DNA of 52,480 nucleotides from an uncultured Nitrososphaeria archaeon (GCA_964440295.1 CAYTRT010000002.1:1-52480), one strand, 5' to 3'. Shown: positions 2,745-25,730, counted from the first letter of the stretch. Translations and numbers: made by a program. Notes: generated from the sequence alone by a model not told the origin.

Positions 2745-2842
2745 TACTTACTTCTAGAGGATTCCTGATAATAATTGAAAGTTCAATCGCAATTCTATTA
2801 ACATCTACATTTCTATACACTCCACAGATATTTTTATTAACA

Positions 2843-6328: not shown

Positions 6329-6442
6329 GCCGGGGTCCCATAACCAGGTAGTGGGGCGGCCTCGAGATCAAAACTAGTCCTGGCCAGACGCGTAAGCCGC
6401 TGCCCCAAAAGGGGCGTGTGGGTTCAAATCCCACCCCCGGCG
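6329..6442 (+). tRNA. tRNA-Ser (anticodon CGA) with a canonical-position intron of about 28 nt
   Basis: Acceptor GCCGGGG/CCCCGGC. T-arm GTGGG-TTCAAAT-CCCAC. Anticodon stem GCGGC (6356-6360)/GCCGC (6396-6400) with loop CU-CGA-G. Long variable arm GCCCC-AAAA-GGGGC (class II). The intron is about 6367/8-6394/5. Confidence 0.85.
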
Positions 6443-7626: not shown

Positions 7627-7747
7627 AGTCCCAATAATATATGGCGGAGCCTACTTTAATTCATTACACTACATAAATGAGCACCTCTAAAACGAAGAGA
7701 TATTTACCGCAATCCATAAATAAGAAATAAAGTTATAGTTCTGCGAA

Positions 7748-10088: not shown

Positions 10089-10862
10089 TTAGTCAAGTAT
10101 TTTTGCTTTCCTTAACGCTTTTTTCAAGGCTTCTGCAAATTCTGTCTTGACCAATTCTGTCGGGTCTATTTTTTCAGATATATATGCGACTCGATTATCG
10201 TATGGTATGTATCCTAGGAACGGAACTCCCAGTTCTTCAGCTAATCTGCAAGTCTCTCCGAGCCTTTCATTAACTACCATATTCTCGATTAGACCGATTA
10301 TTTTTACTTTCATGTCCTTGAAGAATATAGATGCTCGTCTAACGACTTGGAGCGACAGTAGTGATGGAGTAGAAACTAAAATCACTCCTCTATTATTTGT
10401 GATGAGGTTTATTGCGGCTAAAGACTCATCACCAGTCCCCGGAGGAAGATCTACTATTAGATAGTCGAGGCATCCAAAGTCTGTTATTGCCAATAGTTCT
10501 TTGAGAGCCTCCCGTTTTGCATCGCCACTTAAAGGCAGCGGGCCCTCCTTTACGAATAAGCCGATAGATATTACTTTCAAATTGTTAACTTCTGGAGGTG
10601 ATAGTCCCTCCTTTTCTTCAAGCGGCAATTCGTTAATATTCAAAATCATCGATGAGGATGGGCCGTGCATGTCTAGGTCTAAAAGCGCGGCTTTGAATCC
10701 AAAAGTGCTTAGTAGTAGTCCTGTCGTAGCCGCTATTAGGCTTTTACCGACGCCTCCCTTTCCGCTCCCGATGAATACTGTGAAGGAGATCTTGCTTAGC
10801 CTCTTTCTAATGAGGTAGTCTCTGTAATCGGCTATTTCTTCCTCATTCTCTCTGAACTGCAA
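10089..10862 (-). CDS. Mrp/MinD-family P-loop ATPase (archaeal-type HypB candidate)
   Basis: Deviant Walker A GSGKGGVGKS. It overlaps hypA by 20 nt on the same strand. Confidence 0.75.
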   Translation of the reverse strand: MQFRENEEEIADYRDYLIRKRLSKISFTVFIGSGKGGVGKSLIAATTGLLLSTFGFKAALLDLDMHGPSSSMILNINELPLEEKEGLSPPEVNNLKVISIGLFVKEGPLPLSGDAKREALKELLAITDFGCLDYLIVDLPPGTGDESLAAINLITNNRGVILVSTPSLLSLQVVRRASIFFKDMKVKIIGLIENMVVNERLGETCRLAEELGVPFLGYIPYDNRVAYISEKIDPTELVKTEFAEALKKALRKAKILD

Positions 10863-11250
10863 TGTCAGTCACCATTACTCCCCGGCCAGTAAGTATTTTT
10901 AGGTCTCTACTTCTACATGAGGGGCATCTTGCATAAGATGAAATTAATTCAGGAATGAAGTGAATCATTTCCTTTTCTTCATTGCTTAACGATTTTGTCA
11001 ATTCTTTAAACGTATGTATCTGATTGCATGTCCCGCACTTGATAGCAGCTTCCTCAATTGAAACCGTGAATTTAGCATCTTCCAGTTCCGTACCCTTAAT
11101 TAACTCTCTTACTAGATCAATTATGATGTTCCTGTCGAACATTGACAATTCACCGATAGCTATTTTGAAACTGGTTATTCTGTACCCTTTGGTTGAATAA
11201 GTTTCTCTCAAAAAATCCACGATTCCTTGAGCTATGGTGAATTCATGCAT
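10843..11250 (-). CDS. hypA: hydrogenase nickel-insertion protein HypA
   Basis: MHEFTIAQ N-terminus and a CxxC...CxxC zinc site (CGTCNQ, CPSCRS). Confidence 0.85.
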   Translation of the reverse strand: MHEFTIAQGIVDFLRETYSTKGYRITSFKIAIGELSMFDRNIIIDLVRELIKGTELEDAKFTVSIEEAAIKCGTCNQIHTFKELTKSLSNEEKEMIHFIPELISSYARCPSCRSRDLKILTGRGVMVTDIAVQRE

Positions 11251-11403
11251 CTCAAGCAGATGATGTGATGGTCATTTAAAAATATATGCGCTAATTACAG
11301 TTGCGTTCAATTTCATACAATTTCAGTTGATTTAATGCGCCGAGATATACCTAAATTAACTATATATTATAATTTTTCTCATGATGTTTATTAGGACAGC
11401 AAC
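11251..11403. promoter_or_regulatory. divergent promoter region between hypA and the hydrogenase operon
   Basis: AT-rich, with TATA-like TTTAAAAATATAT and CTATATATTATAATTTTT. Contains a tandem CAATTTCA repeat at 11308-11315 and 11318-11325. Confidence 0.4.
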
Positions 11404-12558
11404 TTGATGACGGATCAAATTGCAACAACAATGCTATTATCGAAAGAAAAAGAAACAGACGCCATAGATTTAATTTTGAAGTTGGGAGGCGAGGGAATCA
11501 GAAAATGTTATCAGTGTGGCTCGTGTACTGCCATATGTCCAATATCGGAAGATTACATGACTAGTTTTAGAAGATCTATAAAGTATGCCCAACTCGGATT
11601 GGAGAAAAAATTGTCAAGCGACTTAACTCCATGGTTGTGTTATGCATGTGGTGAGTGCAGTAATTCTTGTCCAAGAGATGCAAACCCAAGCGAAATCATG
11701 ATGAGTATTAGAAGGTATCTAACTATAAAGTATGATTGGACAGGAATATCTCGAGCACTTTATCTCAACTCTAAGATATTGCTGTCTGCTATTTTATCAC
11801 TATCGATACTGACAGGGATTATAATTTACTTCCTTCATGGGCCAGTAATGACGGATAAAGTAGCTCTAGCACTCTTCGCTCCCATTGAAATTGTAGAGAC
11901 TGGCGGACGATTAATTTTTGCGAGTTTGGCTGCTATACTCTTAGTAAATATATATAGGATGTATCGCATGACCACCAGTCTCAAGATAAAGCTTCCATTA
12001 AAGACGTACCTCAAAGAATTTCTAAAGACATTGACACCTAACTTTTTGACACAAAAACTGTTCGGTTACTGCAATGACAGAAAATACTGGCTAATTCACT
12101 TATTGATATTCTATGGATACTTAGCTTCACTAATATTGTTCGAAGTATTGCTAATTTTCACGCATACAAATGATCCCTTCTTATTCGTGTCGCCACTTAG
12201 TCTTCTCGGATTATTTTCTGTCTTCGCTATCACTTATGGCGGATTAGAGGCTATCCGTGGACGTGTTAAGAAAAGTAAACCGATTTGGAAGTACTCACAT
12301 CCAACAGACTGGATGTTTATAGTATTACTGGTACTAATATGCATTACAGGAATATTTACAGGCATTTTTAGAAGTATTGGATGGGCCTTGCCAACATATG
12401 TTATTTTTTCTATTCATTTATCAATCGTTGTACCGTTTCTCGTCTTGGGAGTGCCATTCACAAAATGGTCACATATAGCATACCGGCCTCTTGCCTTATA
12501 CTTTGCTAAGCTTAACGAGATTCGTCGATCCAAAATTGAGGAGGTGCTAAGAACATGA
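11404..12558 (+). CDS. QmoC-like membrane iron-sulfur protein (HdrC-type 2x[4Fe-4S] + HdrE/NarI-like membrane domain), copy 1
   Basis: CYQCGSCTAICP and CYACGECSNSCP motifs, then multiple TM helices with conserved His (IHLL, SHPTDW, IHLSIV, PFTKWSH). Confidence 0.7.
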   Translation: MMTDQIATTMLLSKEKETDAIDLILKLGGEGIRKCYQCGSCTAICPISEDYMTSFRRSIKYAQLGLEKKLSSDLTPWLCYACGECSNSCPRDANPSEIMMSIRRYLTIKYDWTGISRALYLNSKILLSAILSLSILTGIIIYFLHGPVMTDKVALALFAPIEIVETGGRLIFASLAAILLVNIYRMYRMTTSLKIKLPLKTYLKEFLKTLTPNFLTQKLFGYCNDRKYWLIHLLIFYGYLASLILFEVLLIFTHTNDPFLFVSPLSLLGLFSVFAITYGGLEAIRGRVKKSKPIWKYSHPTDWMFIVLLVLICITGIFTGIFRSIGWALPTYVIFSIHLSIVVPFLVLGVPFTKWSHIAYRPLALYFAKLNEIRRSKIEEVLRT

Positions 12559-13685
12559 AAGCGACTCCGTACATTTCATTTAAGGACATTTCTCGCGAAA
12601 TAATAGAGCTGGGCGGAAAGGGCATCTATAAGTGCTATCAGTGTGGATCATGTACGGCTACCTGCGCGATAGCTGAGGGGATGTTCATTAGTTTTAGGAG
12701 AGTCATCAAGTATGCCCAATTAGGGCTTTTGGATAAGCTCCAAAAAGATTTGGTTCCATGGCTGTGTAATGTTCATGGAGACTGCATCGAGGCATGCCCG
12801 AGAGATGCAAACCCATGCGAGATTTTGGCCGCTTTGAGGAGATATCAAAGCACACTTTACGACTGGACCGGCTTATCTAGGTGGTGGTATTACTCATCGC
12901 TAAAGAAAAAACTTTTAACAATAATTATTCTATCAGCCATTTCTATAGTTGGTCTACTGTCATTATTCTACTCAACCATTATGAATTATCTATCAATGAA
13001 CATCTTTGTAAACATTCCCGGATTATTACCGATAGGAATTCCGGTAGTGGTCTTTTCAATAGGGTTGTTAATAAGCAATGGTTACAGAATGTACAAGTTT
13101 ATAGGAGGTGGCAAGGATTACGTTGTGGGCTTCTTTGATGCCTTCAAAAGAGTCTTAACCTTCTGGATTAAGAGCGAGAATGAAGCACTGAGGATTCCTG
13201 ACAAAAGAATTAGAATTCTGGAACACATGTTTATTCTTGCCGGAATCATTCTATACATATTTTTAGCATTGCTGTATCTTGTCTATCCACCAGCCTACTC
13301 GTTATATCCATTCAATTATATCTTAATGATAGGCAGATACGTAGCTGCACTATTCCTAGTAGTTGGTGCAGGACTACCATTCGTAAAGCGTCTCAGCAAA
13401 TCACCTAAGATTCATTGGTATTATAAACTATTCAGACATTCTACTGACTGGGTTGGTTTAGGATTCGTCTTTGCGATCGGATTGACCGGCCTCTTGATGA
13501 ATATCTTTAATGACCTACACATCTATCCTATTTCTTACGTCTTCTATATCATACACATTGGCATCGTCTTTCCCTTCCTAATTCTTGAGGTACCATTTGG
13601 CAAGCATAATCACTGGCTGTATAAGTCGATTGCAAACTATGTGAGCGCGAGAAGAGGACTTATTCGGGGTGAAGTCCTTGAGTAA
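12555..13685 (+). CDS. QmoC-like membrane iron-sulfur protein, copy 2 (paralogue)
   Basis: Collinear with copy 1 (CYQCGSCTATCA; CNVHGDCIEACP; RHSTDW; IHIGIV; PFGKHNH). ATGA overlap with copy 1. Confidence 0.7.
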   Translation: MKATPYISFKDISREIIELGGKGIYKCYQCGSCTATCAIAEGMFISFRRVIKYAQLGLLDKLQKDLVPWLCNVHGDCIEACPRDANPCEILAALRRYQSTLYDWTGLSRWWYYSSLKKKLLTIIILSAISIVGLLSLFYSTIMNYLSMNIFVNIPGLLPIGIPVVVFSIGLLISNGYRMYKFIGGGKDYVVGFFDAFKRVLTFWIKSENEALRIPDKRIRILEHMFILAGIILYIFLALLYLVYPPAYSLYPFNYILMIGRYVAALFLVVGAGLPFVKRLSKSPKIHWYYKLFRHSTDWVGLGFVFAIGLTGLLMNIFNDLHIYPISYVFYIIHIGIVFPFLILEVPFGKHNHWLYKSIANYVSARRGLIRGEVLE

Positions 13686-15030
13686 GCCGGTACTAGTGGT
13701 GGGCGGCGGGATAGCCGGAATTCAAGCCACTATAGACCTCGCAGAGCAGGGAATAGAAGTATACCTGGTTGAGAAAAATCCTAGCATTGGTGGAAAGATG
13801 GCCCAGCTCGACAAGACATTCCCAACGCTTGACTGCGCATCATGCATACTTACGCCGAAGATGGCGGCTCTATTAAGATACAGTAATGTAAAACTTTTGA
13901 CATACTCAGAGGTTCAAGAAGTTAAAGGCAGGGCTGGAGATTTTACCGTTAAAGTCTTGAAAAAGCCAAGATATGTTGATTGGAATAAATGCACTGGCTG
14001 CGGCACTTGTGTTGAAAGATGCCCGGTTAAGGTTCCTGACACGTACAATGTTAATCTTAGCCAAAGAAAGGCGATATACATTGAGTATCCACAGGCAGTT
14101 CCTCGGAAGGCAGTTATAGATTATGCCAATTGTTTACGGCTGAATCCTCCTCCTGATCTTAGAGAAAAAGCGAAGGGACGACCCCTATGCGGCGCGTGTG
14201 AAAAGGTATGTCCAGCCAAGGCAATAGACTATGGTCAGCAACCAGAGATTATTGAATTAAATGTTGCCGCGATAATACTGGCTACAGGAGTAGACCTTTA
14301 CGACGCTCGCAACATTCCTGAGTACGGATACGGCAAGTTCCAAAACGTTTATACACACCTTGAGTTTGAGAGGCTAATATCGTCAACAGGACCCACAAAT
14401 GGACACTTAGTTAGGAGATCGGACGGAAAAACACCTAGAAAAATAGCTTGGATACAGTGTGTGGGATCAAGAGATATTAGGTTTAACCATTACTGCTCCG
14501 CGTTCTGCTGTATGGCGGCTACGAAGCAGGCCATTATTGCTAAGGAACACGTGCCAGAAGTGGAAACCGTTATTTACTACATGGACATGAGGGCCTTTGG
14601 AAAAGGATTTTTCGAATTTTATAGAAGAGCAGTAACTGAGTATGGGGTCAAGTATATTAGGGGGAAGGTCGTCAAGATAACCGAGAGACCTGATAGCAAG
14701 AATTTAGTACTGTTTTATGAAGATACGCTCCATAGTTATATGATGAAAGATGAGTTTGATATGGTTGTCCTATCAGTAGCGATTAGGCCAAATAAAGTTG
14801 CTTCATTCCCCGTTAAGACTGATAAAGGAGGCTTCGTCCAGCTTATGGATCCCTATTTAGATACTGTTTCAACGACTATGGAAGGTATATTTGTAATTGG
14901 AGGAGCAGCAGAGGCTAGGGACATTCCTGACTCAGTTGTAATGGCCAGCGCAGCCGCAATAAAAGCCGCAACAATTGCGAGGAAAGCTGTGATGAGTCAA
15001 CCAATCACTATCAGGGGTGAAGCGATATGA
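13669..15030 (+). CDS. short HdrA-like / QmoA-like FAD iron-sulfur flavoprotein
   Basis: FAD fold VLVVGGGIAGIQATIDLAE, motif GGKMAQLDKTFPTLDCASCILTPKM, and an inserted ferredoxin (CTGCGTCVERCP, CGACEKVCP). It lacks the HdrA N-terminal and C-terminal ferredoxin domains. Confidence 0.8.
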   Translation: MKSLSKPVLVVGGGIAGIQATIDLAEQGIEVYLVEKNPSIGGKMAQLDKTFPTLDCASCILTPKMAALLRYSNVKLLTYSEVQEVKGRAGDFTVKVLKKPRYVDWNKCTGCGTCVERCPVKVPDTYNVNLSQRKAIYIEYPQAVPRKAVIDYANCLRLNPPPDLREKAKGRPLCGACEKVCPAKAIDYGQQPEIIELNVAAIILATGVDLYDARNIPEYGYGKFQNVYTHLEFERLISSTGPTNGHLVRRSDGKTPRKIAWIQCVGSRDIRFNHYCSAFCCMAATKQAIIAKEHVPEVETVIYYMDMRAFGKGFFEFYRRAVTEYGVKYIRGKVVKITERPDSKNLVLFYEDTLHSYMMKDEFDMVVLSVAIRPNKVASFPVKTDKGGFVQLMDPYLDTVSTTMEGIFVIGGAAEARDIPDSVVMASAAAIKAATIARKAVMSQPITIRGEAI

Positions 15031-16964
15031 GTGAGGAGCCTAGGGTTGGAGTCTTCATATGCCATTGCGGACTGAACATTGCCGCAAGAGTAGACGTTAA
15101 AGCAGTCAGCGAATACGCGAAAACCCTTCCAAACGTGATAGTAAGTCATGACTATGTTTTTATGTGTTCAACTGTTGGGCAAGAATTGATAAAGGAGGAG
15201 ATAAAGAAACATAATCTAAATAGGGTAGTGGTGGCGGCATGTTCACCGTCAATGCACGAACCAACATTCAGGGCAGCAATTGAAAGCGCAGGACTAAACA
15301 AGTACTTATTAGAGATGGCTAACATTAGGGAGCATTGCTCTTGGGCTCATTCCGACAAGGAGGCAGCGACAGAGAAGGCCAAAGACCTAGTTAGGATGGC
15401 GGTTGCTAAGGCTCGTCTCCTAGAACCTTTAGAAGAAATAGAATTTCAGGCCAGCCCAACGGCATTAGTTTTGGGAGGAGGGGTTGCAGGGATGAGAGCT
15501 GCAATCGACCTAGCAGAGTATGGGTTCGATGTGTACTTGGTTGATAAGAGCCCGACCCTCGGAGGCAGGGCTGCATTAACTGGATGGCTTGAAAGTGATA
15601 AGAGGGGAGCTGATGTCGTAAATAATTTGATCAATAAAATCGCCGAAAATGAAAATATTCATGTATTCACAAACGCTGAGCTGGTTGAGTTTAGTGGTTT
15701 TCCTGGCAACTTTACTGCAAAGATTAGAGTAAATCCGCGGTACGTAAATGAAAGATGTGTTCTATGTGGAGAGTGTGAAGCTGAGTGTCCGATTGAAGTT
15801 GCAAACGAGTATCAATATGGATTATCTAGGAGAAAAGCTATCTTTTTCCCATTCAAAGCTGCGTATCCGCCAATGTATGTTATAGATCAGAGAGTGTGTA
15901 TTAGGTGTGGTGAGTGTGTTAAGGCCTGTAGATATGACGCCATCAATCTGAATGAACAGCCAGCTATATTGGAGCTTAAGGTTGGAGCATTGATAATTGC
16001 GACGGGCTACGATCCCTATCAACCTCCCAAAGGAGAATACGCGTACGGCCTGCACAGCAATATAATTACTCTGTTTCAGTTGGAAAGATTGTTAGATAAG
16101 GATGGCCCGACGCAGGGAAAGCTAATAATTGGGGGATCCATACCGAGGAGGATAGCATTTATCCTCTGCGTTGGATCCCGCAACACAACCCCAAACTCTA
16201 GGGACTATTGTTCGAGGATGTGCTGCACATCCACGCTGATAAATGCAATTAAGATAAAGGAGAGATACCCGTCTACGGATGTTTATGTATTATACCAAGA
16301 TATCAATACTTACGGAAACGACGAAAGCCTTTATGAGCAGGCTGGAGAGAAACTTGTCAAGTTCGTCAAGTTCGAAGACCCACCGGTAGTTGATATAGGT
16401 CCTGAGGGATTAGTCGTAGAGGTTAGGGAAGTCACCATTCAGGAGGATATAAGCATTCCAGTAGACGCGATTGTTTTGTCCGTGGGAATGGTTCCTAGAC
16501 GAGACGTAACGGACCTAATCTCAATCACTAGAGTAAGTTGTGGTACAGATGGATTCCTCAGAGAGGCGCATCTTAAGCTTAACCCAGTCGAGGCACCTAC
16601 CTCCGGCATATTTCTAGCAGGCGCCGTAACCGGCCCCAAAAACATAATCGAAAGCATTAGAGCAGGCAGTGCTAGTGCTTCTAAAGTCGCCGCACTATTA
16701 TCGAAAGGAAAAGTAAGGACTGAGCCATATACTGCTAGTGTCAACGAAGAAAGATGCAGTGGCTGCAGAATTTGCATTGGTGTATGCCCCTACAAAGCAA
16801 TCACTCTCAGAGAGATTGATGGAAGAAAAGTTGCATATGTTGAGAAGGCCTTATGTATGGGTTGTGGAACTTGCTCAGCTGCCTGCCCATCAGGCGCGAT
16901 GCAGCAATACAGTTTCAAGGACAGACAGATTATAGAACAGACAATAGCCGCGATAAGGAGGTAG
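15027..16964 (+). CDS. hdrA: HdrA-like heterodisulfide reductase subunit A homologue (full-length architecture, QmoB-like)
   Basis: N-terminal VGVFICHCGLNIA domain, FAD fold LVLGGGVAGMRAAIDLAE, inserted ferredoxin, and C-terminal 2x[4Fe-4S] (CSGCRICIGVCP, CMGCGTCSAACP). Confidence 0.8.
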   Translation: MSEEPRVGVFICHCGLNIAARVDVKAVSEYAKTLPNVIVSHDYVFMCSTVGQELIKEEIKKHNLNRVVVAACSPSMHEPTFRAAIESAGLNKYLLEMANIREHCSWAHSDKEAATEKAKDLVRMAVAKARLLEPLEEIEFQASPTALVLGGGVAGMRAAIDLAEYGFDVYLVDKSPTLGGRAALTGWLESDKRGADVVNNLINKIAENENIHVFTNAELVEFSGFPGNFTAKIRVNPRYVNERCVLCGECEAECPIEVANEYQYGLSRRKAIFFPFKAAYPPMYVIDQRVCIRCGECVKACRYDAINLNEQPAILELKVGALIIATGYDPYQPPKGEYAYGLHSNIITLFQLERLLDKDGPTQGKLIIGGSIPRRIAFILCVGSRNTTPNSRDYCSRMCCTSTLINAIKIKERYPSTDVYVLYQDINTYGNDESLYEQAGEKLVKFVKFEDPPVVDIGPEGLVVEVREVTIQEDISIPVDAIVLSVGMVPRRDVTDLISITRVSCGTDGFLREAHLKLNPVEAPTSGIFLAGAVTGPKNIIESIRAGSASASKVAALLSKGKVRTEPYTASVNEERCSGCRICIGVCPYKAITLREIDGRKVAYVEKALCMGCGTCSAACPSGAMQQYSFKDRQIIEQTIAAIRR

Positions 16965-16970
16965 TAGAAA

Positions 16971-17399
16971 ATGGGCGTCAACAATTATGAGCCTAGAATT
17001 GTCGTGTTTGCATGTAACTGGTGTACCTATGCTGCCGTAGATTTGGCAGGGACGAGCAGGATGCAATATCCACCCAACGTCAGAGTGATTAGAGTCATGT
17101 GTTCTGGGAGAATTGATCCCCAGTTCGTCCTCACGGCGTTTAAGCAGGGCGCCGATGGAGTAATCGTCGCAGGATGCCACCCGCCCTCAGATTGCCACTA
17201 CATCAGTGGAAACATAAAGGCCCTGAGAAGATACACCTTATTCAGAAGACTACTAGACGAGCTAGGAATAGAGAAGGAGAGATTTAGGCTTGAGTGGATA
17301 TCAGCATCAGAAGCAAATAAATGGGTTAAGGTAGTCAATGAAATGGTTGAAGATCTGAAAAGATTAGGACCCATTAAAATGGAGGTGGGAGCAGTATGA
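16971..17399 (+). CDS. mvhD: MvhD-type hydrogenase delta subunit
   Basis: The sequence [18 protein letters not shown]...[10 protein letters not shown]...[10 protein letters not shown] is typical of MvhD/FlpD. Confidence 0.85.
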
Positions 17400-18382
17400 G
17401 CTCACGTCCAAAAGTTGCATTTTACTGGTGTGCAAGCTGCGGCGGATGCGAAGAAGCGGTAGTAGACCTTGCAGAGAAAATACTAGATGTGGTCAATCTG
17501 GTAGACATTGTTTTTTGGCCCGTGGCGATGGACTTTAAAGTATCGGACGTCGAAGCATTGCCCGACGGGGCAATAATTGCAAGCTTCATTAACGGCGGGG
17601 TTAGGTTAGCCGAGCACGAGAAAGTAGTAAAGCTGCTGAGGCAAAAGTCTAAGCTCGTAGTGGCGTATGGCGCGTGTGCTTGCTGGGGCGGAATTCCAGG
17701 ACTCGCCAACATTTATAGACTAGAGGAGGTGCTTGAGAGAGCTTACGTCACCACGCCCACTACAATTAACCCTGAAAGGGTAATGCCTTCTCAGTCAGGT
17801 TGGGTTGAAGTAAACGGTGCGAGAATAGAGGTGCCGAAGCTCTTACCCAGCTTAAGACCACTCGACGAAGTCATAGATGTTGATTACTATGTGCCGGGAT
17901 GCCCACCAACACCAGAGGTGACGTGGAACGCAATTGAAGCATTACTGTCAGGAAAACTACCAGCCAAGGGATCCGTGATAGGCGCTGGTAGTAGGTCACT
18001 TTGTGATGAGTGTCCACTCAACAAGACAAAGCCGGAAAATGTGCTCATCAAGGAGTTTAAGAGGGTTATAGATTTCGTTCCGAAGCCTGACGAGTGTCTC
18101 TTGGTTCAGGGCATGCCCTGCCTGGGACCAGTAACGAGAGGGGGATGTGGCGCCCTATGCGTCAAGGCAAACATGCCATGCACAGGATGCTTCGGCCCAC
18201 TAGACGACATTCATGACTATGGAGGAAAGGCAATATCGTTTCTAGGAAGCATACTAGACCTAGAAGACGAAGAGCAGATTCGGAGAGAGATTTCTAAGCT
18301 ACCAGATGTGGTTGGATTAGTTTACAAATACTCGCTTGCTAAATCATCATTAAAGAATCTTCTTAGGAGTGAGAGAAAATGA
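17396..18382 (+). CDS. mvhG: [NiFe] hydrogenase small subunit (MvhG-type)
   Basis: [13 protein letters not shown] proximal-cluster motif, further Cys clusters ([16 protein letters not shown]), and no Tat signal. Confidence 0.85.
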
Positions 18383-19839
18383 AGGAAGTGGTAATAGACC
18401 CAATTACTAGGCTTGAAGGACACGGAAAGATAGTCATAATAATGAATGAAGAGGGCAATGTTGATCATGCATACATTCAGATACCGGAGCTTAGAGGATT
18501 TGAAAAGTTCGCGGAAGGAAGGGCAGCAGAAGACATGCCACAGATTACAGAAAGGATTTGCGGTGTGTGCCCAATGGCGCATCACATGGCCTCGACAAAG
18601 ACTCTTGATGACCTGTACAAATGTACACCCACGCCGACTGCAAGGAAGATCAGAGAATTGATGTATAACATCTTCATGCTTGAGGACCATGCCCTCCATG
18701 TGTACATACTCGGCGGCCCCGACTTCATAGTCGGCCCAACTTCGCCAAAAGAAGAAAGAAACATATTAGGAGTAATTAACAAGGTCGGTAAGGAAAATGT
18801 ATTAAAAGTAATATCGATGCGTAAAAAACTACGAGAAGTCAACCTTATGCTTGGGGGTAAGACTATACACCCGGTTGCAGGAGTGCCGGGAGGAGTTTCT
18901 AGACCGATCAAAGATGGTGAGATTGAAAAGATTAAGCAGGTAGCAAGTGAGTCCGTCGAGTTTGCAAGATTCACTCTAAAGTTGTTTAAGGACTTGGTGC
19001 TGAAGAATGATCAGTATTTCAAGCTGATTACGAGTGATGCTTATACGCATCGAACCTACTATATGGGCCTGGTTGACGAGAAGAACCGCCTCAATTTCTA
19101 CGATGGAAAAATAAGAGTAGTAGACCCCAAGGGTAGTGAATACGCAAAATTTGACGTACATCAATATTACGATTACATTGCTGAACATGTAGAGCCTTGG
19201 ACATACATCAAGTTTACATATCTTAAGAATATAGGATGGAGGGGATTCATTGATGGAGAGAACAGCGGTATATACAGTGTAGCACCACTCGCCAGGCTAA
19301 ACGTCTCTGACTCGCTGGCTACGCCTGAGGCGCAGGCTGCATTTGAAGAAATGGTGTCAATGCTAGGTAAGCCCATTCACCACACCTTGGCTAACCACTG
19401 GGCCAGAGTCATCGAGATGATCTATGCCGCGGAAAGGATTCAGGAACTAGCAAACGATCCAGAAATAACTGATACAAATATCCGTAACATTCCTAAACAT
19501 ACTCCGAGCGAGGGAATGGGGGTCACAGAAGCGCCAAGAGGCACACTCATACATCACTATAAGACAGATGAAAAAGGAGTAGTGAAGCAAGCAAACCTCA
19601 TAGTTGCCACGCAGAATAATGCCGCAAGGATTGCCTTGTCTATTGATAAGGCAGCTAAACACCTGATCCGTCAGGGCCAGATAAATGATGGATTACTGAA
19701 CATGGTAGAGATGGCCTTCAGGGCCTATGATCCATGCCACGCATGCGGGACGCACACGCTGCCAGGCAACATGCCAATTATCGTATACATATATGATACG
19801 AGTGGCAAACTACTTAACGTGGTTAGACATAATTTATAA
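18379..19839 (+). CDS. mvhA: [NiFe] hydrogenase large subunit (MvhA-type)
   Basis: RLEGHG, the L1 motif RICGVCPMAHH, the L2 motif DPCHACGTH, and a C-terminal extension for endopeptidase cleavage. Confidence 0.9.
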   Translation: MKEVVIDPITRLEGHGKIVIIMNEEGNVDHAYIQIPELRGFEKFAEGRAAEDMPQITERICGVCPMAHHMASTKTLDDLYKCTPTPTARKIRELMYNIFMLEDHALHVYILGGPDFIVGPTSPKEERNILGVINKVGKENVLKVISMRKKLREVNLMLGGKTIHPVAGVPGGVSRPIKDGEIEKIKQVASESVEFARFTLKLFKDLVLKNDQYFKLITSDAYTHRTYYMGLVDEKNRLNFYDGKIRVVDPKGSEYAKFDVHQYYDYIAEHVEPWTYIKFTYLKNIGWRGFIDGENSGIYSVAPLARLNVSDSLATPEAQAAFEEMVSMLGKPIHHTLANHWARVIEMIYAAERIQELANDPEITDTNIRNIPKHTPSEGMGVTEAPRGTLIHHYKTDEKGVVKQANLIVATQNNAARIALSIDKAAKHLIRQGQINDGLLNMVEMAFRAYDPCHACGTHTLPGNMPIIVYIYDTSGKLLNVVRHNL

Positions 19840-19845
19840 TCAGTC

Positions 19846-20337
19846 GTGAAGATGGCAGTTCTTTTCCTCGGTAACCCGATTTTTAAGGACGATGCGATCG
19901 GTATAGAGGTTGGGAAAAGATTATTGGATAAACTTGAAAATTTGGGTATAGAGGTTTTCATCTTAGAGAGGACTGGGCTCTCGCTCCTAGACTATATTTT
20001 AGGATATGATAGCGTCGTAATTGTTGATAGCTTTAAAAGTAATCAACACCCTATAGGAGATGTTTATGAGCTGCCCCAAGATTCACTAATGCCGCAGAAA
20101 ATATTCTCACTACATTATGCTGGACTGCCAGAGGCACTGATGGCTATTCACGCGTTAAAACCCGCTCAACCTACTACAATTCACATAGTCGCCATAGAAA
20201 CAAATGATCCCTATACGATTTCTGAAGAAATGTCCGTAGAAATTTCTAATAAGCTGGAAACCATAACAAATAACGTCTTTAACATGATCATTAAAATAAT
20301 GAATCGAGGTGTTTTTAATAATTGCAGTCAAGTATAA
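19846..20337 (+). CDS. hydrogenase maturation endopeptidase
   Basis: N-terminal LFLGNPIFKDDAIGIEVG (GNxxxxDDxxG) motif, about 160 aa, directly after the large subunit. Confidence 0.8.
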   Translation: MKMAVLFLGNPIFKDDAIGIEVGKRLLDKLENLGIEVFILERTGLSLLDYILGYDSVVIVDSFKSNQHPIGDVYELPQDSLMPQKIFSLHYAGLPEALMAIHALKPAQPTTIHIVAIETNDPYTISEEMSVEISNKLETITNNVFNMIIKIMNRGVFNNCSQV

Positions 20338-21545
20338 GAGTGATTGAGGATGCATTCCGAAATAATCGGGAACTTGCATCATCATTGGTTAAGATAATTG
20401 AGAAATATGCTGAGAAAATTGATAAAGAACAGCTGAGTGGCAGCGCGCCCATCAAGATTATGCATTTCTGCGGTACGCATGAATGGACAATAACGCACTA
20501 CGGCCTGAGAAGCTTACTGCCGCAAAACGTTGAACTCGTAGCCGGCCCGGGATGTCCCGTGTGTGTTGTACCGTCAAATTACATAGACTTGTCTATTAAA
20601 CTCTCGCTTGAAGGATGCGTAGTTTACACTTATGGTGATGCCTTACGGCTTCCTTCCAACAAGCCTAAATCACAGGCTAGGTCGTTGCTCGAGGCGAAGG
20701 CAGTTGGAGGAGAAGTCAAAGTAGTGTATTCCTTCTTGGATGCAGTTAGAGATGCAAAGACTCATAGTAGGGACAGTGTGTTTCTAGGGATAGGCTTTGA
20801 GACAGTGCTACCCATGTATGGATTTTTATTCCACAAAAAAGAAGTACCAACAAATCTTAAGTTTTTAAGTCTTGTCCGCCTCACACCGCCGGCAATGAAG
20901 TATACTATCAAGCTGTATAAAGAGAGGGGACTGCTTCCAATAATGGGAATCATAGCGCCCGGACACGTTTCAACCGTCATCGGTGGCGAGGAATGGCGCT
21001 TCTTACCTAGGAACTTTAATCTTCCAACCGTAGTTGCAGGCTTCGAGCCGATAGACGTCTTGATGTCTATTGCCTCAATCCTCAAGATGATTAATGATAA
21101 GAAACCAGACCTAGAAATCGAGTATAAAAGACTAGTTAAGACAGACGGAAACCCGCAAATGAGAAGAGTGATAGAAGAGGTCTTTGAGCCGGTATATGCT
21201 GCATGGAGAGGGATAGGCATGATAGCGAGGAGTGGATTAAAACTTCGCCCGGAGTTTGGACAAGTCTATGACGCCTTCGAGTACTTCGGCATCAAGGATG
21301 TATCGCCATCTGAGTACGTGATGACGCATGCACATTTCGGCGATGCGGGAAGCTATGACGTCCCGCCAAACTGTAGATGCGGCGAGGTCGTGCTTGGGAT
21401 ATCTAAACCGACAGACTGCCCGTTATTCATGAAGTCATGCACCCCTGAGTCGCCTTGGGGGCCCTGTATGGTTTCTTCAGAGGGGACCTGTAACGTCTGG
21501 GCAAAATACGGTCAGATGGAGAAGATCAAGATGAAGATAAGGTGA
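20322..21545 (+). CDS. hypD: hydrogenase maturation protein HypD
   Basis: Conserved motifs MHFCGTHEW, GPGCPVCV, GFETV and PCMVSSEGTC. The start is TTG 20322 or GTG 20340. Confidence 0.9.
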   Translation: MQSSIRVIEDAFRNNRELASSLVKIIEKYAEKIDKEQLSGSAPIKIMHFCGTHEWTITHYGLRSLLPQNVELVAGPGCPVCVVPSNYIDLSIKLSLEGCVVYTYGDALRLPSNKPKSQARSLLEAKAVGGEVKVVYSFLDAVRDAKTHSRDSVFLGIGFETVLPMYGFLFHKKEVPTNLKFLSLVRLTPPAMKYTIKLYKERGLLPIMGIIAPGHVSTVIGGEEWRFLPRNFNLPTVVAGFEPIDVLMSIASILKMINDKKPDLEIEYKRLVKTDGNPQMRRVIEEVFEPVYAAWRGIGMIARSGLKLRPEFGQVYDAFEYFGIKDVSPSEYVMTHAHFGDAGSYDVPPNCRCGEVVLGISKPTDCPLFMKSCTPESPWGPCMVSSEGTCNVWAKYGQMEKIKMKIR

Positions 21546-21550
21546 GAAGT

Positions 21551-22375
21551 ATGTGTTGGGGAACGCCGGGCAAGGTTTTGGAGATAGACAATGAAAATAA
21601 AATAGCCAAGATAGACTTTGGTGGAGTAGTCAGAGAGGCATTAATAGCTATTGATGACCTAAAAGTGGGAGAATTTGTAATGGTTCATGCAGGAGTCATA
21701 ATTGGGAAAATGGATTCAAGAGACGTGGCGGTAAATTTGGCTCTATATTCTGAGCTAGCGGAGATGGCATATAGAGACATGGGACTCGATGAGGATGAGG
21801 CAAGAACCAAGGCAAGGACAGAACTCAATAAATTATTCTCAAATTTAGGAATTGATCCCAAAGGCATCGATGAAGTAAAAAGTCAGATAGACGAAAAAGA
21901 GGATGATGACGAAAAGTATAGTAAAGTAGAAATTCCAAAAAATGCGTTTAGAAAAGTCTACAGGGTATCCCTCTCCGACACAGATTACTTACAAGTCATG
22001 CACTACACTAATTACTTCAGATTCTGTGAGAGGTGTCAACAGGAATTATTAGCAAGCGTGGGATTTAGCTATTCAGTCTTGATTCATAAATTTGGCCGCT
22101 TCATACCTACTGTTGAGACGGGTGGAAAAATTCTTTCACCAGTCAGAATAGACAATGAGATTGAAGTGATTGTCTGGGTCGAGGAGATTGGTAGAAAGCA
22201 CGTGAAGTTCCATAACTTAATATGGAATAGAACTTCTGACAGGCTTGCCGCAGATATTTACACGGTTGGTGTGTGTACGGACACTTCCATAACAGAGTCG
22301 ATGGAGCTTCCAGAAGGGTTTGCCAAGGCTCTTGAGCCGTTCATCTATAAGCCCAAAACCGGTGAGGGTTGGTGA
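21551..22375 (+). CDS. hypC: HypC fused to a YbgC/4HBT-type hotdog thioesterase domain
   Basis: The ATG at 21551 gives the obligatory MC N-terminus (MCWGTPGKV). An acidic linker follows. The C-terminal domain from about 21944 has the 4HBT motif SDTDYLQVMHYTNYFRFCE. Confidence 0.8.
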   Translation: MCWGTPGKVLEIDNENKIAKIDFGGVVREALIAIDDLKVGEFVMVHAGVIIGKMDSRDVAVNLALYSELAEMAYRDMGLDEDEARTKARTELNKLFSNLGIDPKGIDEVKSQIDEKEDDDEKYSKVEIPKNAFRKVYRVSLSDTDYLQVMHYTNYFRFCERCQQELLASVGFSYSVLIHKFGRFIPTVETGGKILSPVRIDNEIEVIVWVEEIGRKHVKFHNLIWNRTSDRLAADIYTVGVCTDTSITESMELPEGFAKALEPFIYKPKTGEGW

Positions 22376-23427
22376 ATAACGTCACGATGCTCCATGGCGC
22401 TGGTGGAAAATACATGCTGCAGTTCATTCATAAGTACATTCTGAAATATTTCGGCGACCTAGGAAGGGATATTGATGTTCCCCTACTTCTATTGGAGGAC
22501 TCAGCGATCGTTAATGGCATCGCGTTTACGACAGACTCCTACACAGTTCATCCATTGTTCTTCCCTGGCGGAGACATAGGAAGAATGGCCGTATGTGGAA
22601 CGGTAAACGACCTAGCAGTTAAGGGGGCTACGAAAATTCTCGGTATATCGTGCGGACTGATAATAGAGGAGGGCCTCGAACTGTCTGATGTGGAGCGAGT
22701 GTTAAGCAGCATGAGGGCAGCTGCAATCGAGGCAGAGACATCCATAGTTACTGGAGATACAAAAGTAGTTGAGAAGGGACGAGCTGACAAACTCTTAATC
22801 AACTGTTCCGGGATAGGAGTTCCGGAGGAGGAATTAACGAGCAATTACGAGACAATCAAGAGAAGCAGGAGCGAAGACACTTCGATGTGGCTGATAACTA
22901 AGAATATTAGGCCTGGAGACAGATTGATAATAAATGGCCCAATCGGCGATCACGCAGTAGCCATATTAACAGCGCGCGGCGAACTAGGCTTTGAGTCCGA
23001 TGTAAAGTCAGACAACGCGCCCCTAAACAAACTCATGAGAAAGGCCTTAGAGGTGGGAGGAGTTACTTGCGCAAAAGATCCTACTCGTGGAGGATTGGCG
23101 GGGCTATTGAACGAGTGGGCAGAAAATACGGGACTTGGATTCGTAATTCGTGAAGACTCGATACCGATGAGCCCCGCTGCCAGGGCTGCCTCCGAACTGC
23201 TGGGGATCGACATGCTAGAAGTGGGGAATGAGGGGAAAGTCGTGATGTGTGTCTTGAACGACAAGGCAGAAGAAGTTTTAGAATCCATTAAGAGATCGGG
23301 CTGGGAGCAGGCAAGCATTATTGGATACGTGACGGACTCGTTCAAAGGTGTGATTCTAGAGACAACTATCGGAGGCAAGAGAATAATTCCTCCGCCCATA
23401 GGGGACCCGGTACCTAGAATATGCTAA
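22369..23427 (+). CDS. hypE: hydrogenase maturation protein HypE
   Basis: AIR-synthase-like fold, MLHGAGGK N-terminus, and the C-terminal PRIC motif. Confidence 0.9.
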   Translation: MVNNVTMLHGAGGKYMLQFIHKYILKYFGDLGRDIDVPLLLLEDSAIVNGIAFTTDSYTVHPLFFPGGDIGRMAVCGTVNDLAVKGATKILGISCGLIIEEGLELSDVERVLSSMRAAAIEAETSIVTGDTKVVEKGRADKLLINCSGIGVPEEELTSNYETIKRSRSEDTSMWLITKNIRPGDRLIINGPIGDHAVAILTARGELGFESDVKSDNAPLNKLMRKALEVGGVTCAKDPTRGGLAGLLNEWAENTGLGFVIREDSIPMSPAARAASELLGIDMLEVGNEGKVVMCVLNDKAEEVLESIKRSGWEQASIIGYVTDSFKGVILETTIGGKRIIPPPIGDPVPRIC

Positions 23428-25730
23428 GTGCCGCCAAGCTAACGATAACTGGAGTAGTCCAAGGCGTGGGCTTCAGGCCCGCAATTACTCGCCTCGCTTT
23501 AAGCCTCGGAGTTAAAGGCTATGTCAAGAATCTTGGTGGCGGAGAGGTAGAGATCTGGGTTGAGGGAGAGAGTGAAAAGGTTGATTCATTCATTAAGTCA
23601 GTCGAGGGAGGCGTAACCCCGACTGCGAGAATAGAGAGAGTAGTAGTCAGCGATGTAGAACCACAGGGCATGAGGAGTTTTACAATACTCAAAAGCACTC
23701 CAGAATCAATTCTCATTTCACAGATTCCGCCCGACATTGGAATATGTAAATGGTGTTTAGACGAAATTATTGATAAAGAGTCTCGGAGATACTACTATGC
23801 CTTTAACTCTTGTGCATGGTGTGGTCCGAGATACTCAATCATTGAAAGTCTGCCATATGATCGAGAGAACACTAGCTGGCGAGATTTCCCGCTCTGTAAT
23901 AACTGCGCTGAAGAATATAACGATCCCCAAAACGTTAGGCGGTTCCATGCCGAAGGAAATAGCTGTCCAGTATGTGGACCCAAAATAGATTTACTTGATA
24001 ATGAGCTAAAATCAATGAATGTCGAGGATCCTATTCTCGAGGCAGCTAAGCTTATCGATGAGGGATACATAGTTGCTGTCAAAGGAATAGGTGGATACCA
24101 CCTAGCATCTCTAGCTTCAGATGACGACGTAGTCTTAAAGCTACGTCTCAGGAAAAAGCGTCCGAGACAACCCTTCGCCGTGATGGTGCTAGATATTGAG
24201 ACTGCGAAAAGGCTCGTGATAATCAACGATAAAGCTGAGAGATTGCTGAATAGCTACGAGAGGCCAATAGTGATTTTACGCAGGGCCTCAAACTCTAATG
24301 TTTCTCCATTAATAGCGCCCGGATTAAATAGTTTGGGAATTTTCCTACCATATACGGGCCTCCACTACTTTATTTTAAAAAATTTAAGAGACAAGTTTGT
24401 GGTGATGACCAGCGGAAACCCGACAGGCCAACCAATGATTACTAGTGAAGATCAGCTGTGGAAATTAGGCAAAGTCGCTGATTTCTTTCTCGTCCACAAC
24501 AGACGCATTATTAATAGGGTGGACGATTCCGTTGTCAGATTCACTAATGGCGAAGTACAATTCTTAAGGAGGGCAAGGGGCTTTGCACCCACATGGATCG
24601 AGAGCGATCACAGGTTTAATAGGCCCGTCATTGCTTTTGGGTCTGATCTTCACAACGTAGGTGCTGTTGCTTTAGAGAATAAAATAATTCCCACACAATA
24701 CATAGGCGACGTAGATGAGTACGAATGCTTCAAAGACCTTGAAGAGTACTTGACCCGACTATGCAAATACTATAGGATTAACCCAAAAGACGCAGTCCTA
24801 GTCTCTGACATGCATCCTCTGTATAGATCATCGCTATTGGCGGAGAGATGGAGCGAAACATATGGATCAGAGCTAATCAAGGTACAACATCATAAGGCGC
24901 ATATGGCATCTGTCATGCTAGATAATTTTCACCCGGTTGATGAGCCTGCAGTTGTAATAGCGATTGATGGCGCTGGTTACGGCGATGACGGCGCCATATG
25001 GGGAGGAGAAATACTTGCTTGGGATGGAGAAAAAGCAGATAGAAAGTCTCATCTTGAGTATCAAGTCATGCCTGGAGGCGATCTAGCGACTAGATTTCCA
25101 GCGAGAATGCTCACGTCCATCCTCAGCAAAGTTATGAGTGAAGAAGAGATAATTAATCTCTACGAGAGAAAAGGATTGATAGATTATTTTCCGAGGGGCA
25201 TTGAAGAGCTTCACCAGTGCGTCATCTACGCGAAGTCAGGTAAGGGTCCACGAACTTCTAGTACTGGCCGACTCCTTGACAGCGTATCGGCTCTCTTGAA
25301 GCTATGCAAGGAGCGTACGTATGAGGGGGAGCCTGCAATTTTGCTAGAAGACCATGCATGGATGGGCAGCAAGATAGAACTAGCAATTCCAGATCCAAAG
25401 AATGAGGAAGAAATCATACCTACCACTGATTTGGTCTATCAGCTGGCATGCCTAGCAGACAGCTTGAAGAGCTGGGACATAGCCTATACTGCACAGTTAA
25501 CTATTGGCAAATTGTTGGGTATGGCCGCAGTAAACGTGGCAATCGACCTCGAAGTGGGTGTAGTCTATGTTAGCGGAGGCGCAGCAGTAAACGACTACAT
25601 TATTCAAGGAATCCAATCATCGATAAAGGATGCAGGGTTAACGCTCCGAATGCATAAAAGATTACCTCCCAACGATGGCTGCATATCGGCTGGACAGGCA
25701 TTCATGGCAAAAATGTTAGAATTTGTTTAA
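23421..25730 (+). CDS. hypF: carbamoyltransferase HypF
   Basis: Acylphosphatase domain (GVVQGVGFRP), two Zn-finger pairs (CKWC, CAWCGPRYS, CNNC, CPVCGP), and YrdC and Kae1-like domains. Confidence 0.92.
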   Translation: MLSAAKLTITGVVQGVGFRPAITRLALSLGVKGYVKNLGGGEVEIWVEGESEKVDSFIKSVEGGVTPTARIERVVVSDVEPQGMRSFTILKSTPESILISQIPPDIGICKWCLDEIIDKESRRYYYAFNSCAWCGPRYSIIESLPYDRENTSWRDFPLCNNCAEEYNDPQNVRRFHAEGNSCPVCGPKIDLLDNELKSMNVEDPILEAAKLIDEGYIVAVKGIGGYHLASLASDDDVVLKLRLRKKRPRQPFAVMVLDIETAKRLVIINDKAERLLNSYERPIVILRRASNSNVSPLIAPGLNSLGIFLPYTGLHYFILKNLRDKFVVMTSGNPTGQPMITSEDQLWKLGKVADFFLVHNRRIINRVDDSVVRFTNGEVQFLRRARGFAPTWIESDHRFNRPVIAFGSDLHNVGAVALENKIIPTQYIGDVDEYECFKDLEEYLTRLCKYYRINPKDAVLVSDMHPLYRSSLLAERWSETYGSELIKVQHHKAHMASVMLDNFHPVDEPAVVIAIDGAGYGDDGAIWGGEILAWDGEKADRKSHLEYQVMPGGDLATRFPARMLTSILSKVMSEEEIINLYERKGLIDYFPRGIEELHQCVIYAKSGKGPRTSSTGRLLDSVSALLKLCKERTYEGEPAILLEDHAWMGSKIELAIPDPKNEEEIIPTTDLVYQLACLADSLKSWDIAYTAQLTIGKLLGMAAVNVAIDLEVGVVYVSGGAAVNDYIIQGIQSSIKDAGLTLRMHKRLPPNDGCISAGQAFMAKMLEFV

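Follow-up and report, generated by a model that had tools for sequence, protein, structure and literature searches.

An archaeal operon joining an Mvh-type hydrogenase and a complementary HdrA pair to two QmoC-like membrane anchors: a candidate bifurcating membrane complex

Introduction

What could serve as the electron acceptor of an Mvh-type [NiFe] hydrogenase and its HdrA flavoprotein when HdrB is missing and the adjoining genes encode membrane proteins? The question is raised by positions 11404–19839 of a 52,480-nucleotide stretch of DNA from an uncultured Nitrososphaeria archaeon (GCA_964440295.1, CAYTRT010000002.1:1-52480; hereafter the window), where seven co-directional genes on the + strand encode two QmoC-type proteins (QmoC1 and QmoC2), a short and a long HdrA, MvhD, MvhG and MvhA. 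A first-pass annotation, made from the sequence alone, had taken this operon for a hydrogenase–HdrA module wired to a quinone-reactive membrane anchor. Having followed up its claims with profile, structure and synteny searches, we give about an even chance to the reading that the operon encodes one membrane-anchored complex, which would bifurcate the electrons of H2 to quinone and ferredoxin.

Results

A compact operon that lacks HdrB

The junctions between the start of the operon at 11404 and the maturation protease gene that follows mvhA comprise overlaps of 4, 17, 4, 4 and 4 nt and two gaps of 6 nt. The coordinates, strand and spacing given by the first-pass annotation for the seven open reading frames all agree with the present gene table (Table 1), and every motif that it quoted is present, namely SHPTDW/RHSTDW, IHLSIV/IHIGIV and PFTKWSH/PFGKHNH in the two membrane proteins and RICGVCPMAHH and DPCHACGTH in the hydrogenase large subunit. 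Its statement that the operon lacks a CCG-domain (HdrB/HdrD) reading frame also stands: profile searches of positions 10089–25730 returned no CCG domain and hence no HdrB, the catalytic CCG-domain subunit of HdrABC. The tightly packed string of genes runs on past 19839 through the maturation protease, hypD, a hypC-thioesterase fusion, hypE and hypF, and ends at 25730.

QmoC1 resembles QmoC of sulfate reducers and probably binds heme

Both membrane proteins match the whole 360-position NF038018 profile, in keeping with the HdrC+HdrE fusion architecture of QmoC that had been proposed for them. QmoC1 shares 46% identity with the QmoC that Ammonifex degensii encodes in its aprBA-qmoABC locus (L009). 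Its N-terminal HdrC-like domain carries two CxxCxxCxxxCP motifs and is matched by solved HdrC subunits at 6e-14; a search for a solved QmoC structure found none, the matches being confined to the HdrC domain. Hydropathy and an AlphaFold2 model (predicted local distance difference test score 81.9, predicted template modelling score 0.82) predict six transmembrane helices, and the positive-inside pattern indicates an N-in/C-in topology in which the Fe-S domain and the C-terminus are predicted to be cytoplasmic.

Four histidines are conserved among QmoC proteins, three of them invariant and the fourth nearly so in 22 sequences drawn from every genomic context. When the AlphaFold2 model was searched with Foldseek, HdrC was matched with a probability of 1.00 and NarI was the sole membrane fold of high probability (0.97, TM-score 0.45, E-value 0.48), which we take as a weak sign of a NarI-like fold. 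Canonical QmoC contains two hemes b that are reducible by quinol (Ramos et al. 2012), and heme binding by QmoC1 is likely because the two proteins are homologous; by the same analogy, both anchors of the operon are likely to bind heme b.

The two HdrA proteins complement each other

Alignment to HdrA2 supports the earlier assignment of a short, QmoA-like HdrA followed by a full-length one (Table 1). The short protein consists of the flavin adenine dinucleotide (FAD)-binding thioredoxin-reductase domain with its inserted ferredoxin domain, lacks the N-terminal and C-terminal domains, and retains the sequence LDCASC, a DCxxC motif equivalent to C194/C197 of the solved Methanothermococcus HdrA. 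The long protein possesses the N-terminal Fe-S, FAD, inserted ferredoxin (with two cluster motifs) and C-terminal ferredoxin domains but lacks the Cys197-type motif. The complete domain set of a bifurcating HdrA, as seen in structure 5ODC, is thus reached only by the two proteins jointly. In a regular-expression survey, every QmoC-linked HdrA pair that was fetched showed the same division, DCxxC being confined to the short partner and the N-terminal domain to the long one. This complementarity had gone unremarked in the first-pass annotation and implies an obligate heterodimer, as has been proposed for the tandem HdrA genes of anaerobic methanotrophic archaea, which show the same pattern (Chadwick et al. 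2022).

The GxGxxG motif and the invariant C264/C276/C280/C281 columns that ligate the thioredoxin-reductase-domain cluster are found in both HdrA proteins (alignment A1). As this four-cysteine cluster is invariant in both, two exits towards HdrC-like modules are possible. Long HdrA proteins of archaeal Mvh-linked loci carry two canonical cluster motifs in the inserted ferredoxin domain, and none is found in Apr-linked QmoB, in the long subunit of a TusA-linked locus (L008) or in the long subunits of Bacteroidota, where this domain is absent or reduced. Read against the electron path described for HdrA (PMC9012536), the pair in the window would offer one entry for electrons from the hydrogenase, one low-potential exit and two thioredoxin-reductase-domain clusters.

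All seven operon genes have ratios of nonsynonymous to synonymous substitution rates (dN/dS) of 0.05–0.10 when compared with the 96%-identical relative L094, which served as the reference since synonymous divergence from the 77%-identical L004 is saturated. The values for QmoC1 (0.086) and QmoC2 (0.068) lie within the range of the other five genes and indicate strong purifying selection; neither QmoC copy is decaying.

Sequence evidence points to a cytoplasmic, Mvh-type hydrogenase

The identification of MvhD, MvhG and MvhA downstream of the HdrA genes is borne out by matches to the PF02662, VhuG and VhuA profiles at those positions. VhuA is the best NCBIfam match of the large subunit, and its best matches among solved structures are the HydABCSL [NiFe] large subunit (7t2r_D, 2.9e-111) and, marginally behind, MvhA (5odc_F, 1.2e-108); by profile and solved-structure matches the hydrogenase is Mvh-type. 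MvhA carries both CxxC ligand pairs of the Ni-Fe site, in RICGVCPMAHH (N-terminal) and DPCHACGTH (C-terminal), and a C-terminal extension for proteolytic maturation. The mvhG and mvhD genes adjoin mvhA, as is the case for Mvh-type (group 3c) hydrogenases. No twin-arginine signal peptide is present in the N-terminus of MvhG, which places the protein in the cytoplasm.

A protease gene directly follows mvhA in eight archaeal Mvh-linked loci (L004, L006, L007, L012, L013, L014, L021 and L094), and in L011 it lies ~1.8 kb downstream of mvhA, beyond genes for an MJ0207-family protein, hypA and mrp. The HypC protein of the window (21542–22375) is fused to a C-terminal thioesterase domain of the 4HBT/YbgC type, and the fusion is kept in L004 and L094; to our knowledge, thioesterases have no established function in the maturation of [NiFe] enzymes.

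QmoC2 is a rare, His-substituted second anchor

QmoC2 has the same architecture as QmoC1, to which it is 35% identical. The first-pass annotation had ascribed two HdrC-type [4Fe-4S] motifs to each protein and handled the anchors as equivalent. This is true of both motifs of QmoC1 and of the first motif of QmoC2, but the second motif of QmoC2, CNVHGDCIEACP, is non-canonical (CxxHxxCxxxCP), with a histidine in place of the second cysteine. In each of the seven QmoC2 genes examined, the sequence C-N-[V/L]-H-G-D-C-x3-C-P replaces the second four-cysteine motif. A 4-residue insertion precedes the HxTDW motif of QmoC2.

QmoC2 is a rare, sharply separated clade by sequence comparison. A word-indexed search of 5.8 billion proteins found relatives in about eleven 90%-identity clusters at ≥44% identity; the next scores, after a fall from 363 bits, are at 225 bits, where QmoC1-type proteins lie. 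An exhaustive HMMER search of 1.84 billion 50%-identity representatives gave one full-length cluster and one fragment, followed by a drop to 190 bits. In a distance-based neighbour-joining tree the clade has a bootstrap value of 100/100 and joins the QmoC1 proteins of Thermoproteota in 87/100 replicates, from which we tentatively suggest that QmoC2 arose by duplication within the Mvh-linked archaeal lineage and then diverged fast. Every QmoC2-type gene seen is located directly upstream of hdrA-hdrA-mvhDGA, either in tandem after QmoC1 (the window, L004, L006, L012, L021 and L094) or as the sole anchor (L011 and L013).

The seven genes recur as a block

The synteny survey proposed in the first-pass annotation was carried out with the window proteins as probes, the loci being collected from exact-protein look-ups and a scan of GTDB species representatives; the resulting context counts describe a sample and are not frequencies, and the species of the window itself lies outside the GTDB scan matches listed. 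Three main settings of the QmoC family emerged. Among the matches listed, about 35 of the 80 sampled loci have the order tusA(-dsrE)-mvhD-hdrA-hdrA-qmoC and about 9 of the 80 belong to aprBA-qmoABC loci; the third setting is the Mvh-linked form. The latter occurs in Caldarchaeales, Gearchaeales (L006), other Thermoprotei (L014, L021) and Archaeoglobaceae (L007) and, with an altered gene order, in at least six species representatives of Bacteroidota (L034, L056, L057, L067, L077 and L083). The same seven-gene block is thus found in unrelated neighbourhoods; its flanks differ between lineages, so that it moves as a unit.

Genes for nickel or cobalt transporters are frequent neighbours of the block. 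Transporters of the cobalt/nickel energy-coupling factor type (CbiM/CbiQ, with NikR in L012) adjoin it in L006, L011, L012 and L013; in the window it is flanked by hyp genes instead. The TusA-linked context, which has no hydrogenase and is the commonest one for this QmoC family among the matches listed, spans many bacterial phyla, Thermoplasmata and Archaeoglobales (L008, L010, L017, L018 and about 30 further loci). A Ca. Methanoperedens sp. (L073) encodes two HdrA-MvhD units, one of them ~1090 amino acids long, behind a QmoC-type gene, again with no hydrogenase; both units keep the Cys197-type motif, which makes this another wiring of HdrA to a QmoC anchor.

The nearest named relative of the window is the metagenome-assembled genome JAVZLJ, which has identical flanking genes and a QmoC1 with 77% identity. 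JAVZLJ is classified as Thermoproteota; Nitrososphaeria_A; Caldarchaeales; HR02; DTDI01 and has a GC content of 42.5% and a size of ~1.14 Mb (Qi et al. 2024, supplement). The lineage of the window, whose GC content is 38–48%, is thus probably Caldarchaeales, GTDB family HR02, for which the name Calditenuaceae has been proposed.

A putative scheme of electron transfer and its weaknesses

We infer assembly of the seven products into one complex, heme binding, quinone reduction, bifurcation, the direction of electron flow and a ratio of one anchor per HdrA protomer; taken together, they give the following scheme. Cytoplasmic MvhA/MvhG would oxidise H2, and MvhD would hand the electrons on to the long HdrA, which they would enter at its C-terminal ferredoxin domain before reaching an HdrA flavin. 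The short and long HdrA would form an obligate asymmetric heterodimer in which the Cys197-type ligand of the short protein completes the N-terminal cluster of the long one. From the flavin, one electron would move along a high-potential branch via the thioredoxin-reductase-domain cluster to the HdrC-like clusters of QmoC, heme b and the membrane quinone, and the other would reach ferredoxin along a low-potential branch made up of the N-terminal cluster followed by the inserted ferredoxin domain. Quinone would thereby take the place that the heterodisulfide CoM-S-S-CoB and its HdrB site have in methanogens, as the acceptor whose exergonic reduction drives that of ferredoxin. Each QmoC paralogue would most likely dock on one HdrA protomer, in the manner of the two HdrC subunits of (HdrABC)2.

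Textbook potentials are −414 mV for H2, about −75 mV for menaquinone and about −500 mV for ferredoxin. Calculated from these values, bifurcation from H2 to quinone and ferredoxin is exergonic by ~50 kJ per 2 H2, which is somewhat above the figure for heterodisulfide. The inference drawn in the first-pass annotation, that H2 might reduce quinone and ferredoxin together, is a plausible hypothesis, and it has been reached independently for Ca. Methanoglobus. Of the findings that the annotation had named as refuting its reading, none that can be checked by computation was encountered.

Several observations nevertheless weigh against this scheme. All members of the module are biochemically uncharacterised, and canonical QmoABC is not known to bifurcate (Ramos et al. 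2012). The NF038018 scores of QmoC1 and QmoC2, at 185 and 144 bits, fall below the 300-bit equivalog cut-off; by full-length homology, with 46% identity of QmoC1 to an Apr-linked QmoC, the two proteins are members of the QmoC family yet not equivalogs of the QmoC of sulfate reduction. None of the Foldseek E-values obtained with the AlphaFold2 model is significant. Furthermore, three of the conserved histidines are predicted near the cytoplasmic face and one mid-way along transmembrane helix 6, which differs from the two-plus-two pattern of NarI and leaves the number of hemes and the side of the quinone site uncertain. Were the quinone site near the outer face, as in NarI and HdrE, flow from H2 to quinone would carry electrons outward and membrane potential would be consumed; were it near the inner face, the reaction would be electroneutral. 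The earlier description of the anchor as b-cytochrome-like has the four conserved histidines and the modest NarI fold match behind it, but the histidine positions are no simple match to NarI. Relatives with a single anchor of either type exist, so one anchor per protomer is not required. Finally, no quinone-biosynthesis gene is visible in the window; a UbiA-family gene (50952–51827) was considered as evidence of menaquinone synthesis and rejected, its best matches being archaeal lipid prenyltransferases. An existing quinone pool is suggested by a membrane Fe-S/CCG protein linked to electron-transfer flavoprotein (Etf) genes elsewhere in the window.

The tandem anchors permit a more elaborate, and in our judgement rather improbable, version in which each HdrA protomer is wired to its own QmoC, one of the two exits is set to a different potential by the His-ligated cluster of QmoC2, and the whole acts as a flavin-based H2:quinone/ferredoxin oxidoreductase linked to the proton-motive force, for which there would be no characterised counterpart. 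In such an asymmetric complex, two membrane sites may be addressed, or quinone reduction may be coupled to the membrane potential.

Alternative explanations

The same list of parts could also make up a simple, non-bifurcating H2:quinone oxidoreductase, in which the flavin would be a converter of two-electron to one-electron transfer and ferredoxin would not be reduced. In its favour, canonical Qmo is not known to bifurcate, and the long HdrA of the Bacteroidota module lacks the inserted ferredoxin domain. We regard this explanation as unlikely for the window, as it leaves unaccounted for an archaeal low-potential branch that is complete and under strong purifying selection, and as much simpler cytochrome b-linked hydrogenases suffice for the purpose with no need of HdrA. 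The QmoC genes could also be merely co-located with the hydrogenase and have another membrane function, Mvh-HdrA being a soluble enzyme with a partner encoded elsewhere. Dissulfuribacter has been reported to possess Mvh and an 'HdrAC2' set lacking HdrB; the overlaps of 4 nt and 17 nt between the genes, the finding of QmoC2-type genes only beside hdrA-hdrA-mvhDGA and the mobility of the block as a unit between genomic contexts make such co-location very improbable.

Two further explanations keep the complex and change what it does. In a confurcating enzyme, H2 and, via QmoC, quinol would jointly reduce a cytoplasmic acceptor whose gene lies at another locus (a sulfur-carrier protein, for instance, or one of the DsrC-like or CCG type), similar to what the QmoABC-AprAB model envisages. 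A hydrogenase is one candidate for the low-potential partner of Qmo, ferredoxin being the other (Ramos et al. 2012), the tusA(-dsrE)-containing setting is the commonest one of this QmoC family among the matches listed, and in the literature an Mvh:Hdr complex of Aigarchaeota has been speculated to reduce DsrC. However, no acceptor gene is kept beside the module in archaeal Mvh-linked loci, where the flanks differ; apr, dsr, tusA and dsrE genes were not found in the window, and its sole CCG protein is membrane-fused and Etf-linked. We consider confurcation of this kind quite unlikely. The complex might alternatively run in reverse, producing H2 from reduced ferredoxin and quinol or letting quinol and the proton-motive force reduce ferredoxin. 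Flavin-based bifurcating enzymes are reversible in principle, and confurcation had been raised in the first-pass annotation, but the reverse reaction is calculated from standard potentials to be endergonic by ~50 kJ per 2 H2 unless H2 is extremely low, and the homologous cluster of Methanoglobus is discussed as H2-oxidising, which leaves very little room for this direction.

If the operon does encode a complex that bifurcates electrons to quinone and ferredoxin, quinone would join heterodisulfide as an exergonic acceptor for HdrA-based bifurcation. In thermophilic archaea that are not methanogens, and apparently also in Bacteroidota, the oxidation of H2 would then directly feed the respiratory chain as well as the pool of low-potential ferredoxin. 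The role of the HdrA-like subunits QmoA and QmoB, a question of long standing, would likewise become accessible to experiment. A hydrogenase, or alternatively ferredoxin, has been suggested as the missing third partner of Qmo, interacting with QmoB (Ramos et al. 2012); here a hydrogenase shares an operon with Qmo-like genes.

Gene arrangement and the remainder of the window

The operon starts with a TTG codon at 11404 that is immediately followed by an ATG at 11407, and a 383-amino-acid form of QmoC1 is annotated in some databases. Upstream of it, across an AT-rich intergenic region, lie divergent genes for HypA and an Mrp-type ATPase (Table 1). The latter gene is paired with hypA also in L004, L011 and L094, and its product is probably an ATPase-type nickel-insertion partner of HypA. 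The TATA-like stretches of the intergenic region are candidate archaeal promoters, and CTATATATTATAA sits about 30–40 nt upstream of the operon start codon.

Table 1 Features of the Mvh-HdrA-QmoC operon and its flanks in the window
Feature	Coordinates	Strand	Evidence
Mrp/NUBPL-type P-loop ATPase, divergent from the operon	10089..10862	-	PF10609 ParA/NUBPL 1.1e-52; MrpORP 1.7e-50
HypA nickel metallochaperone, divergent upstream of the operon	10843..11250	-	PF01155 6.8e-20; NF003008 3.9e-33
AT-rich divergent intergenic region	11251..11403	.	TATA-like stretches TTTAAAAATATAT and CTATATATTATAA
QmoC1	11404..12558	+	NF038018 qmoC 1.9e-54, 185 bits, full-length
QmoC2	12555..13685	+	NF038018 qmoC 6.8e-42, 144 bits, full-length
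Short HdrA, QmoA-like architecture, 453 aa	13669..15030	+	HdrA2 positions 138-564; 5odc_A 6.3e-128, residues 144-576
Long HdrA, 645 aa	15027..16964	+	HdrA2 positions 1-640; 5odc_A 1.7e-194, residues 2-646
MvhD, [2Fe-2S] adaptor between hydrogenase and HdrA	16971..17399	+	PF02662 7.8e-56; VhuD 4.4e-44
MvhG small subunit	17396..18382	+	VhuG 2.9e-66
MvhA [NiFe] large subunit	18379..19839	+	VhuA 8.6e-114
Hydrogenase maturation endopeptidase	19846..20337	+	TIGR00072 9.2e-23
hypD, hypC-thioesterase, hypE, hypF, mutually overlapping	20322..25730	+	HypD 1.7e-121, HupF_HypC + 4HBT, AIRS/AIRS_C, HypF domains (Pfam)

The CCG protein of the window (41230–43254, 674 amino acids) has at its N-terminus a membrane region that is weakly QmoC-like and, besides an HdrC-like dicluster, a pair of CCG domains (best match TfrB, 8.8e-47). 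Its gene is followed downstream by a 5-formyl-tetrahydrofolate cyclo-ligase gene and etfB-etfA (44021–45753), and the protein resembles a membrane Fe-S oxidoreductase of the Etf:quinone type or a fusion of the HdrD/E kind. It was considered as a separate HdrB/HdrD partner of the operon and rejected: it carries a membrane region and an HdrC-like dicluster of its own and adjoins etfBA. A tetraether lipid synthase gene, tes (28510–30117; 738 bits, above the cut-off), is, together with the UbiA-family gene mentioned above, a membrane-lipid gene and not a quinone gene.

Elsewhere, positions 1764–6293 encode a MoxR-type AAA ATPase and a DUF58 protein followed by two proteins of 242 and 507 amino acids that have no Pfam or NCBIfam match, and this four-gene set is kept in L004 and L094. 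A 114-nt tRNA at 6329–6442 was found by Rfam (40 bits) and missed by ARAGORN, and it is thus presumably intron-containing; genes for a tRNA-splicing endonuclease and an archease are present too (50434–50982 and 46–480). Taken with the tes and endonuclease genes, this tRNA points to an archaeal source. In L094, ~1.2 kb of additional DNA that includes a TnpB/Cas12f-like fragment (L094 positions 5217–6248) is inserted between the DUF763 and PALP genes; the insertion is missing from the window (7627–7747).

Comparison with known systems

The methanogen MvhAGD-HdrABC complex (5ODC) shares with the window the hydrogenase module, the MvhD adaptor, a four-domain HdrA and an HdrC-like dicluster. That complex is soluble, its HdrA is a homodimer, and heterodisulfide is reduced at its HdrB subunit. 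The operon of the window encodes no HdrB; its HdrC-like domain continues into a membrane domain, and in place of one HdrA there are two complementary paralogues.

QmoABC of sulfate reducers, as encoded by Ammonifex degensii, has in common with the window QmoC and two HdrA-like flavoproteins that divide the Cys197 motif and the N-terminal domain between them. In QmoABC, MvhD is fused to QmoB, the inserted ferredoxin domain is absent, the partner is APS (adenosine 5′-phosphosulfate) reductase and there is no hydrogenase; in the window MvhD is separate, and the apr genes that would link it to AprBA were not found. The Ammonifex QmoC belongs to a 'type II' Qmo lineage that is also present in organisms lacking Dsr or Apr, where its role is unknown (Neukirchen et al. 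2023). The tusA(-dsrE)-mvhD-hdrA-hdrA-(93 aa)-qmoC clusters, likewise of the type II Qmo kind, share the QmoC family and the architecture of the HdrA pair with the window but differ from it in having sulfur-carrier genes and no hydrogenase subunits. The hdrA-qmoC-hdrA-mvhD-G-A-protease clusters of Bacteroidota encode the same seven functions in another order, with a long HdrA that, unlike that of the window, lacks the inserted ferredoxin domain.

The closest known system is the 'Mvh-Qmo-Hdr' cluster of Ca. Methanoglobus. Buessecker et al. (bioRxiv 2022; ISME J 2023) reported from Ca. Methanoglobus nevadensis a cluster in which MvhABG is combined with a pair of HdrA homologues and a QmoC-HdrC fusion, and speculated on electron flow among H2, ferredoxin and menaquinone. 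In cultured Ca. M. hypatiae the cluster is highly expressed, at 995–2431 reads per kilobase per million mapped reads, and the electrons of H2 were hypothesised to be bifurcated to menaquinone and ferredoxin (Lynes et al. 2024). Like the window, it comprises MvhA/G/D, a short and a long HdrA, a QmoC-type HdrC/cytochrome-b fusion and no HdrB. The Archaeoglobaceae locus L007, with the order qmoC-hdrA-hdrA-mvhD-G-A-protease, shows the same HdrA complementarity as the window; its QmoC is 52% (BLASTP) or 50% (alignment A2) identical to QmoC1, and its short and long HdrA are 63% and 35% identical, respectively, to the short HdrA of the window (alignment A1).

The differences are in the anchor and the setting. 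The Methanoglobus cluster has one QmoC, of the QmoC1 type, and the window has two tandem anchors, one of them the His-substituted QmoC2. The former is found in methanogens of the Archaeoglobi, where it is thought to feed HdrDE, whereas the window is devoid of methanogenesis genes; in the window alone of the two, the cluster is joined to a full hyp maturation set. The first-pass annotation had left room for the arrangement being uncharacterised. Its one-anchor form was already described in 2022–2024, if not biochemically; our literature search found no account of tandem anchors, of the QmoC2 clade or of the module in either Caldarchaeales or Bacteroidota, nor anything specific on the module in Thermoproteota. 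To the one-anchor kind already published, the window contributes a further anchor paralogue and a new host lineage rather than a new concept.

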